The position numbers and the translations under genes were made by a program. The notes under the pieces are model-generated. The model made no database searches and was not told where the DNA came from. It worked only from the letters and a program-made list of their open reading frames with translations. A stretch of 54,251 nt of DNA from IMG/VR virus record IMGVR_UViG_3300007722_000019, positions 1 to 54,251 of that record, one strand, 5' to 3'. This document shows positions 51,607 through 51,837 of the stretch, in pieces; positions within the stretch are counted from its first letter, which is position 1; each line of letters starts with the position of its first letter. The stretch is from a virus. Lineage: Duplodnaviria > Caudoviricetes.

Positions 51607-51837
51607 AACAATTTGTAGAAGGTAGGCATGGAAGTTGCCATCCTCTAAGGAGTTGCGAGCAGAGTCGTGCTAAGTATCGATGTAACGTGAAAGGCCGTAA
51701 AAACTGCCAGACCGCTGTTCATGTTTGTTTCGCCCGGGAGGGAGGGAACCAAGATAAAATTAATCCTACATGGTTAATCTATCAATGCGTGATTATGTCT
51801 GTAGAGCATTTGGTGTGATAACACACTACAAATTGTT
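51607..51837 (+). ncRNA. large-subunit rRNA L11-binding domain (H43/H44) mimic with internal insertion
   Basis: 12-bp closing stem; AGGTAGGCATGGAAGTTGCCATCCTCTAAGGAGT...GTGTGATAACACACTAC. Confidence 0.65.

Follow-up and report, generated by a model that had tools for sequence, protein, structure and literature searches.

Why should a bacteriophage carry, away from any ribosomal RNA (rRNA) gene, a copy of one of the functional centres of the large ribosomal subunit (LSU)? The question is raised by the virus record IMGVR_UViG_3300007722_000019, a stretch of 54,251 nucleotides (nt) from a large freshwater phage that is referred to here, in its whole length, as the window. At 51607-51837 on the plus strand it holds a 231-nt RNA whose two ends together rebuild the tip of helix 42 (H42), helix 43 (H43) and helix 44 (H44) of LSU rRNA, with 159 nt inserted between them. 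A preliminary description of the sequence had seen in this RNA a free-standing mimic of the GTPase-associated centre, interrupted by an insert, and the comparisons reported below bear this out. The explanation we lean towards is that of a stable non-coding RNA, belonging to a large and uncatalogued phage family, that rebuilds the GTPase-associated centre as an off-ribosome imitation and would bind free uL11 or a host protein recognising the domain.

The RNA and its likeness to LSU rRNA

Positions within the centre follow the numbering of Escherichia coli 23S rRNA, with the register anchored on an E. coli locus (L061). By direct reading, the sequence letters sit where the preliminary description had placed them. 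The RNA is made up as follows.

51607-51618 (+): 5' strand of the closing stem P1, the counterpart of the H42 tip; G 51618 is position 1055
51620-51644 (+): copy of H43, positions 1057-1081, with 3 + 3 base pairs (bp) and a 9-nt loop
51620-51644, 51621-51643, 51622-51642, 51625-51639, 51626-51638, 51627-51637 (+): the pairs of H43
51628-51636 (+): loop of H43, with G at 1067 (51630) and U at 1072 (51635)
51645-51649 (+): CUAAG turn, positions 1082-1086, closed by a C-G pair
51650-51653 (+): GAGU, positions 1087-1090, with possible pairs of G 51652 to C 51824 and U 51653 to A 51823
51654-51812 (+): lineage-specific insert of 159 nt between positions 1090 and 1091
51813-51822 (+): tip of H44, positions 1091-1100, with a G-C and a U-A pair, the 6-nt loop GUGAUA and G at 1095 (51817)
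51823-51825 (+): ACA, positions 1101-1103, the 3' side of the base of H44
51826-51837 (+): 3' strand of P1; C 51826 is position 1104
51836-51841 (+): run of six T overlapping the end of P1, by direct reading a possible transcript end

The end arms had been described as enclosing the module, and they do so as a perfect 12-bp stem: AACAATTTGTAG (51607-51618) and CTACAAATTGTT (51826-51837), 12 nt each and 207 nt apart, are 100% complementary, and 17 of 2000 shuffles of the surrounding 601 nt (51400-52000) contained a perfect inverted repeat of at least 12 nt. All seven pairs of H43 and the 1082-1086 turn form in the window RNA, three of them at positions that covary throughout the family, and every letter of the tertiary core is present (U1060, A1088, G1071 with G1091-C1100, U1072 with U1092-A1099). 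The segment GUGUGAUAACACAC, earlier drawn as a plain hairpin of 5 bp, becomes in the rRNA register the tip of H44, with 2 bp and a 6-nt loop. The announced insert is present, although its length is 159 nt and not about 170, and we infer that it is a domain added between positions 1090 and 1091 in this lineage.

Likeness to rRNA was scored with a covariance model, R1, built from ten true LSU rRNA segments, namely that of E. coli, one other bacterial and eight archaeal ones; the nine not from E. coli are those that Rfam called true LSU rRNA among 18 submitted metagenome loci. With filters off, a scan of the entire window by R1 gave one strong match at 51608-51695 (32.4 bits, expectation value (E) 4.4e-7), the next best among the 18 matches listed having an E of 0.17. 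On complete carrier genomes it found exactly one copy in each of five. The insert-free relatives L040 and L099 scored 73.5 and 70.1 bits, compared with 71.4 bits for the E. coli 23S site itself. Both (670-746 on the minus strand of either locus) are whole, self-closed domains of about 60 nt, L099 within an array of ten tRNA genes, and 23S rRNA is matched by L040, with 83% identity across 53 nt, in every one of 5426 complete E. coli genomes. For 15 of 15 representatives the best match in the E. coli rrn operon lay at 23S ~1050-1095. The 5' profile of the family found in this operon the H43 site only (E 1.4e-12; next 0.72), and the same site was found by the window's relatives L023 and L026, at E 1.8e-5 and 2.6e-4. 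As the preliminary description had stated, no other rRNA is present, there being no rRNA gene anywhere in the 54,251-base record, and the Rfam models, those for LSU rRNA included, match nothing in the RNA at E up to 10; what the phage carries is therefore a copy of the domain and not rRNA.

Compared with the GTPase-associated centre (E. coli ~1051-1108, the uL11 and thiostrepton domain of ~58 nt), the phage RNA has the same helices, junction and loop sizes, the same invariant U1060, G1071, A1077, G1087 and A1088, a conserved pair 1082-1086 and the same link of 1072 to 1092-1099. It differs in lying outside an rRNA gene, in having its own closing stem of free sequence and in the 159 nt inserted between 1090 and 1091, and the window copy further has U-A and not C-G at 1092-1099 and G in place of A at 1067 and 1095. 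The commonest letter of the family at position 1061 is A (106 of 143 members); according to PMC6239185, some archaea have A1061, and the crystal structures were determined with this variant.

The family and the covariation among its members

The preliminary description had proposed a covariance-model comparison with the LSU domain, which gave the R1 match above, and a search of phage genomes for homologues; 143 distinct relatives were collected from viral and metagenome contigs. The gene upstream of the RNA led to 31 viral loci, and in three of the 20 close gene relatives that were read, the gene is followed by a homologue of the RNA (L023, L026 and L009, where it is truncated at the end of the contig). 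A degenerate 32-nt pattern derived from these three and the window returned 25 viral loci and at least 118 metagenome loci, and a pattern of the 3' element alone 111 viral loci. Out of 235 matches to the 5'-core profile, 187 had the 3' element and a closing stem, the other 48 being cut loci, true rRNAs and insert-free forms. De-duplication left 143 distinct complete members, which sets the size of the family at 143 or more, with inserts of 34-639 nt and with lake, gut and soil origins.

When the profiles are made from 126 relatives outside the window's own lineage, they return to this place alone in the window: the 5' core at 51617-51656 (E 3.9e-10, 35.5 bits; next 0.014) and the 3' profile at 51807-51826 (E 2.4e-4; next 1.2). 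The 14-nt 3' element of the window (UUUG, the H44 tip, CAC, with the stem strand after it) fits the canonical pattern of 129 of the 143 members. Members stand free among tRNA genes and not in rRNA operons, with a tRNA gene in the examined flanks of 83 of the 143 and within 150 nt in 59, and 174 of 175 flanking tRNA genes share the strand of the RNA. No protein family recurs beside it: 237 flanking open reading frames (ORFs) fell into 170 clusters, the largest of which (19) represents one gut-phage lineage.

Full-length copies also fill unannotated gaps in cultured jumbo phages. The RNA of GAP32 (NC_019401.1, 289507-289764; L312 893-1150) is at least 80% covered in 14 records, among them Cronobacter GAP32, Xanthomonas XbC2, Kaldavass, Pectobacterium CBB, Serratia BF and six Erwinia pEa_SNUABM phages, and the match is partial in Acinetobacter ME3, Yersinia fHe-Yen9-04, Xanthomonas XaC1, XacN1, Pd_22F and Aeromonas 4_4572. 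Another cultured copy lies at ~312930-313180 of OR258281.1 (L313). The window RNA itself had no blastn match in 50,697 phage records, and an exact 28-mer scan of viral contigs returned none. No description of the family was found in Rfam 15 or in searches of the literature, and PMC8040213 has no relevant passage. A structured-RNA screen of IMG/VR (PMC10690425) reports 8495 unnamed candidate RNAs, none of them overlapping rRNA predictions, and the family may stand nameless in its supplementary tables. Note that the matches that include the cultured copies also contain short records labelled 'phage', 2-7 kb in length, that look like contamination with 23S rRNA, and that two contigs of ~880 kb (L076 and L108) each hold more than one distinct mimic copy, among tRNA genes.

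Covariation among homologues, the absence of which the preliminary description had named as a ground for rejection, is found in the closing stem, in H43 and between 1072 and 1092-1099. Across the 143 members the pair 1058-1080 is U-A in 81, G-C in 38, A-U in 12, U-G in 4 and C-G in 3; the pair 1064-1074 is C-G in 133, G-C in 7 and A-U in 2; and the pair 1082-1086 is U-A in 114, C-G in 16 and A-U in 6, while U1060, G1062, G1071 and A1077 are invariant. The letters of the window that had been called eukaryote-like are G-C at 1058-1080, C-G at 1082-1086 and G1067. The two pairs covary throughout the family and the same letters stand at these positions in true archaeal LSU rRNAs, and we therefore read these pairs as compensated changes and not as signs of a eukaryotic origin.

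In P1, nine positions are 78-98% paired over 129 members, mostly with five or six pair types and with two or three at the two innermost positions, whereas shifted controls pair in 0-95%, or in 27-63% once the innermost pair is set aside; these pairing percentages are inflated, as a duplex-energy filter chose the members. An alignment of 34 members including the window (A5, made with MAFFT, the structure written by hand) shows changes on both sides of all nine P1 pairs. Its cells are 94.7% paired as against 74.4% in shuffles, and its covariation score is 0.515 as against 0.142, values that 0 of 500 shuffles reached in either case; partners slid along the alignment pair in 35-62%. The base pairs of H44 form in 34 of 34 sequences of this alignment, but their letters are invariant and thus give no covariation. 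At the H44 tip, the changes at 1092 and 1099 (U-A, U-G, C-G) compensate in the rRNA register of 2 bp and a 6-nt loop, and not in a hairpin of four pairs.

Position 1072 follows the pair 1092-1099; in the crystal structures of the rRNA domain the two form a tertiary base triple. U1072 goes with U-A (104 members) or U-G (18), while C1072 is found in five of the five members with C1092-G1099 as against 2 of 124 with U1092 (Fisher 7.6e-8, a value that ignores relatedness; the five represent about three distinct RNAs). GAP32 and XaC1 add two further lineages with C1072 and C1092-G1099, and the combination of G1071 with G1091-C1100 holds in 129 of 129 members. The covariation of 1072 with 1092-1099 suggests that the tertiary fold is kept across the family. 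A conserved core, a variable position 1067 (G in 70 members, A in 55) and a closing stem of free sequence together fit selection for the uL11-binding domain itself, and not for factor contact or for uL10.

What the RNA may do

In the explanation that we favour, the RNA would fold away from the ribosome into a compact, rRNA-like tertiary domain and would bind the usual reader of the site, most simply free uL11; alternatively, its partner might be a host factor or toxin for which the centre is a recognition site or a target. Either mode of binding could shield or re-tune translation during infection. Attack on the site by bacteria has a precedent in the toxin Tre23, which ADP-ribosylates H44 at 1095-1098 (PMC8661411). 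The preliminary description had named titration of L11/L10, damping of RelA activation, a decoy for an rRNA-targeting toxin and tethering of the insert to ribosomal proteins as possible roles. tRNA-processing enzymes may release the RNA from the transcript of the upstream Ro-like gene, next to tRNA-Gly. A uL11 or uL10 gene was found in none of five carrier records, and any such partner must therefore be derived from the host. Binding of uL10 finds no support, the H42-like stem having no conserved sequence.

Several observations weigh against this explanation. The missing uL11 and uL10 genes are one of them, and the RNA has no match in Rfam, where 11 relatives searched at E up to 1 likewise fell into no family. 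R1 aligns the 5' half only (P1 strand, H43, the 1082-1086 turn and GAGU), stopping short of the 3' half because the insert blocks it, and its rRNA seeds, having been found with a pattern derived from the phage RNAs, are the most phage-like rRNAs. Set alone against the E. coli rrn operon, the window RNA finds the correct site weakly (E 0.15-0.23), and the filter applied to P1 has been mentioned above. The folding energy of the whole RNA is no better than that of shuffles (z -0.78), nor is the minimum free energy of the insert (z -0.02). No RNA sequencing run contains the stretch, while seven DNA runs, all freshwater or estuary, contain it in whole or in part. The adenines at 1067 and 1095, those of the thiostrepton and factor contact of the centre, are both G in the window RNA (51630 and 51817), a combination seen in 2 of 129 members, while 1095 is A in 123 of 129. 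To judge from these letters, contacts of the thiostrepton or EF-G type that need the two adenines would be less likely for the window copy.

Known systems offer partial parallels. Phage RNAs known to act in translation are tRNAs and tmRNA, and the present RNA resembles them in being a stable RNA of the translation apparatus that shares both array and strand with tRNA genes. With the leaders of ribosomal protein genes (L10, L1 and others, which have families in Rfam) it shares the imitation of a protein-binding site of rRNA outside the ribosome; unlike these leaders, which act in cis, each upstream of the gene for the protein that it binds, it stands free among tRNA genes and copies a whole folded domain. 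No ribosomal protein gene lies beside it, the next genes being tRNA-Gly and a nuclease. We know of no other imitation of rRNA than that in such cis-acting leaders. Decoy RNAs of phages, such as the ToxI mimic, have the decoy logic in common with it, the piece imitated here being one of the ribosome. If our explanation is true, the family would constitute a new class of viral RNA mimicry, in which a widespread phage gene that stands by itself encodes a folded copy of a functional centre of the ribosome, and would mark the GTPase-associated centre as an unrecognised battleground (uL11, the stringent response or toxins directed at the centre). It is directly testable, since cultured jumbo phages that infect Cronobacter, Serratia, Pectobacterium, Yersinia and Acinetobacter carry unannotated copies, and its insert-free forms would be natural, independently folding versions of the classic model RNA of ~58 nt.

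A broader proposal, which we hold to be possible but clearly less probable, is that phages carry a portable imitation of the factor-binding site that traps a host protein reading or attacking this site (a toxin, a defence effector, RelA or a GTPase) and so protects phage translation; in the window lineage it would be co-expressed with a Ro60-like ring, perhaps as a Y RNA with an rRNA-imitating module. In 19 of the 143 family members, whose inserts measure 339-354 nt, there is a hairpin with the 12-mer of the sarcin-ricin loop, AGUACGRGAGGA (L036 at ~900-950, its relatives L038, L041, L042, L044, L182 and L212, and L039). The stem of this hairpin, which was compared with H95 of E. coli, covaries between two lineages. 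With the GTPase-associated centre and the sarcin-ricin hairpin together, these long-insert RNAs thus hold copies of the two rRNA elements that make up the factor-binding site.

Less likely again is an RNA analogous to the Y RNAs, one that in the window lineage is the partner of a Ro-like ring protein encoded upstream, onto which the closing stem would dock. Delivery of the particle to uL11, to ribosomes or to rRNA-handling enzymes would here be the task of the rRNA-like module, much as YrlA carries a tRNA-like module. The features concerned are the following.

50125-51564 (+): Ro-like gene of 479 amino acids, Pfam DUF2828 and DUF7788, PHROG 850 'RNA-binding protein'
51583-51596 (+): G+C-rich hairpin followed by a T-rich run, terminator-like and possibly leaky, with the same arrangement in L009, L023 and L026
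51842-51849 (+): GATAAATA, a recurrent candidate promoter motif, 7 nt before tRNA-Gly
51857-51931 (+): tRNA-Gly (GCC), the next gene, starting 20 nt downstream of the RNA

The RNA does lie directly after a Ro-like gene, as had been stated, and 'Ro-like' holds at the level of the predicted fold. In an AlphaFold model with a predicted local distance difference test score of 78, the protein appears to have the Ro60/TROVE fold over its whole length. Ro60/TROVE structures are its top 12 fold matches in the PDB (E 8.8e-10 to 3.9e-5, template-modelling score 0.39-0.57), Ro60 of Thermus phage phiLo and Rsr of D. radiodurans among them; a sequence search against PDB chains gave nothing, the fold search alone providing matches. 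The RNA starts 42 nt after the gene and there is no copy of GATAAATA between 48353 and 51842, and it is therefore probably made, in the window lineage, as the tail of the transcript of the Ro-like gene. The order of gene and RNA is kept in the window, L009, L023 and L026. Further afield, DUF2828 occurs somewhere in 7 of 10 further large carrier records, and also in the genomes G001 and G002, which amounts to 9 of 10 carrier records rated at least 90% complete, a count that covers RNA carriers only. The known Y RNAs and YrlA are likewise non-coding RNAs beside a Ro-type gene, with a stem formed from both ends and a module imitating an RNA of translation, bacterial Y RNAs adjoining Ro60 genes and mimicking tRNA according to PMC4201824.

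The phage module differs from these in imitating rRNA and not tRNA, and its closing stem, perfect in the window, has neither a conserved sequence or Ro-binding helix nor a bulge of the kind recognised by Ro; no Y RNA or YrlA model of Rfam matches it at E up to 10. The pairing with the gene, moreover, does not extend beyond the window lineage. The gene adjoins the RNA within the examined flanks of 3 of the 143 members, all of this lineage, and lies 27 to ~200 kb away elsewhere, while 17 of 20 close gene relatives have no RNA after the gene. Finally, the gene is present and R1 finds no match in the complete genomes G014 and G016 and in the cultured phages DLP_6, Ci1, S13 and KVP40, with five of five carriers detected as a positive control.

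A separate observation concerns two of these cultured phages, Cronobacter S13 (L003, 3390-3632) and Citrobacter Ci1 (L002, ~3380-3620), in which the DUF2828 gene is followed by two tRNA-like genes, 113-121 nt in length. They share an insert of ~28 nt in the anticodon region, are annotated as tRNA-Ser, tRNA-OTHER or pseudo, and are candidates for Y-RNA-like or intron-bearing tRNAs.

Slightly less probable still is a decoy aimed at the translational GTPases or at RelA, that is, a portable factor-binding site and not a sponge for uL11. It draws on the same 19 sarcin-ricin copies with their covarying stem, and according to PMC8661411 the GTPase-associated centre and the sarcin-ricin element together form the factor-binding site. 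The insert of the window, however, is without the sarcin-ricin 12-mer, and position 1067 is A in some members of the family and G in others, the window having G both there and at 1095. An inert relic, whether a captured scrap of an rRNA gene or no more than a hairpin that terminates or stabilises the Ro-like transcript, would agree with the place of the RNA at the end of a transcription unit, with its terminal T run and with its unremarkable thermodynamic folding, but is strongly disfavoured by compensatory changes in every stem and at the tertiary-triple position, by 143 distinct members from many environments, by the single copy in each of five complete genomes and by insert-free forms that score as full rRNA domains.

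The insert, the neighbouring genes and further observations

At the base of the insert lies a module of the form UGC-GAG ... UAGA-GCA, followed by UUUG (in the window 51654-51663 with 51800-51809), that is common to 36 of 129 members across very different insert lengths. Its 3-bp helix covaries (UGC/GCA, GUC/GAC, AUC/GAU, UCC/GGA) and is adjoined by a conserved internal loop in which GAG faces UAGA and could form tandem G-A pairs. UUUGUUU, GAACYAAG and CAAUG are conserved blocks of the insert, for which RNAalifold on three sequences gave a weak consensus of -5.8 kcal/mol. A search for the window's own type of insert returned 19 loci, of which only the two already known belong to the family. 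Two further candidates within the insert were rejected: a second rRNA-like piece (nt 81-115 of the RNA against 23S ~777-811) had an E of 1.3-1.4, is absent from L023 and L026 and is put down to chance, and a hairpin before GAACCAAG, likened by reading to the position of the sarcin-ricin hairpin in the long-insert relatives, had no significance.

With 25 copies in the window, 23 of them on the plus strand, the motif GATAAATA exceeds the 6.2 copies expected, and none of 100 shuffles attained this number. Its sites include 39757-39764, 48353-48360 and 51842-51849 and often precede tRNA genes or ORFs by 7-20 nt; the motif resembles the T4 late promoter. Its placement before tRNA-Gly could let this tRNA start at its mature 5' end.

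The record, rated 14% complete, has 30 tRNA genes and one tmRNA. The latter (28771-29122) passes two tmRNA models of Rfam, the betaproteobacterial one and that for permuted tmRNA, and on the opposite strand of the same region (28767-28747) the 5' profile of the family has a weak second match (E 0.014). A tRNA at 34017-34091 with the anticodon CUA, called Pyl by ARAGORN, may be an amber suppressor. Near the RNA and the tRNA genes lie an RNA ligase (46806-47891; PHA02142 OB fold and ligase domain) and, at 51945-52358, a homologue of staphylococcal nuclease with an N-terminus like a signal peptide; together with the Ro-like gene they give this region the look of an island for RNA repair or turnover. 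A partial gene for Fe-S cluster biosynthesis (IscA-type, PF01521) closes the window at 53976-54251.

An L7/L12-type domain was not found in the window fragment or in the genomes G003-G005. G001 and G002, the complete genomes nearest to the window phage, each encode a protein of 122-126 amino acids with a partial C-terminal domain of ribosomal protein L7/L12 (PF00542, 34-35 bits; L310 1258-1626 on the minus strand and L311 1441-1821 on the plus strand), from a gene that lies more than 100 kb from the RNA.

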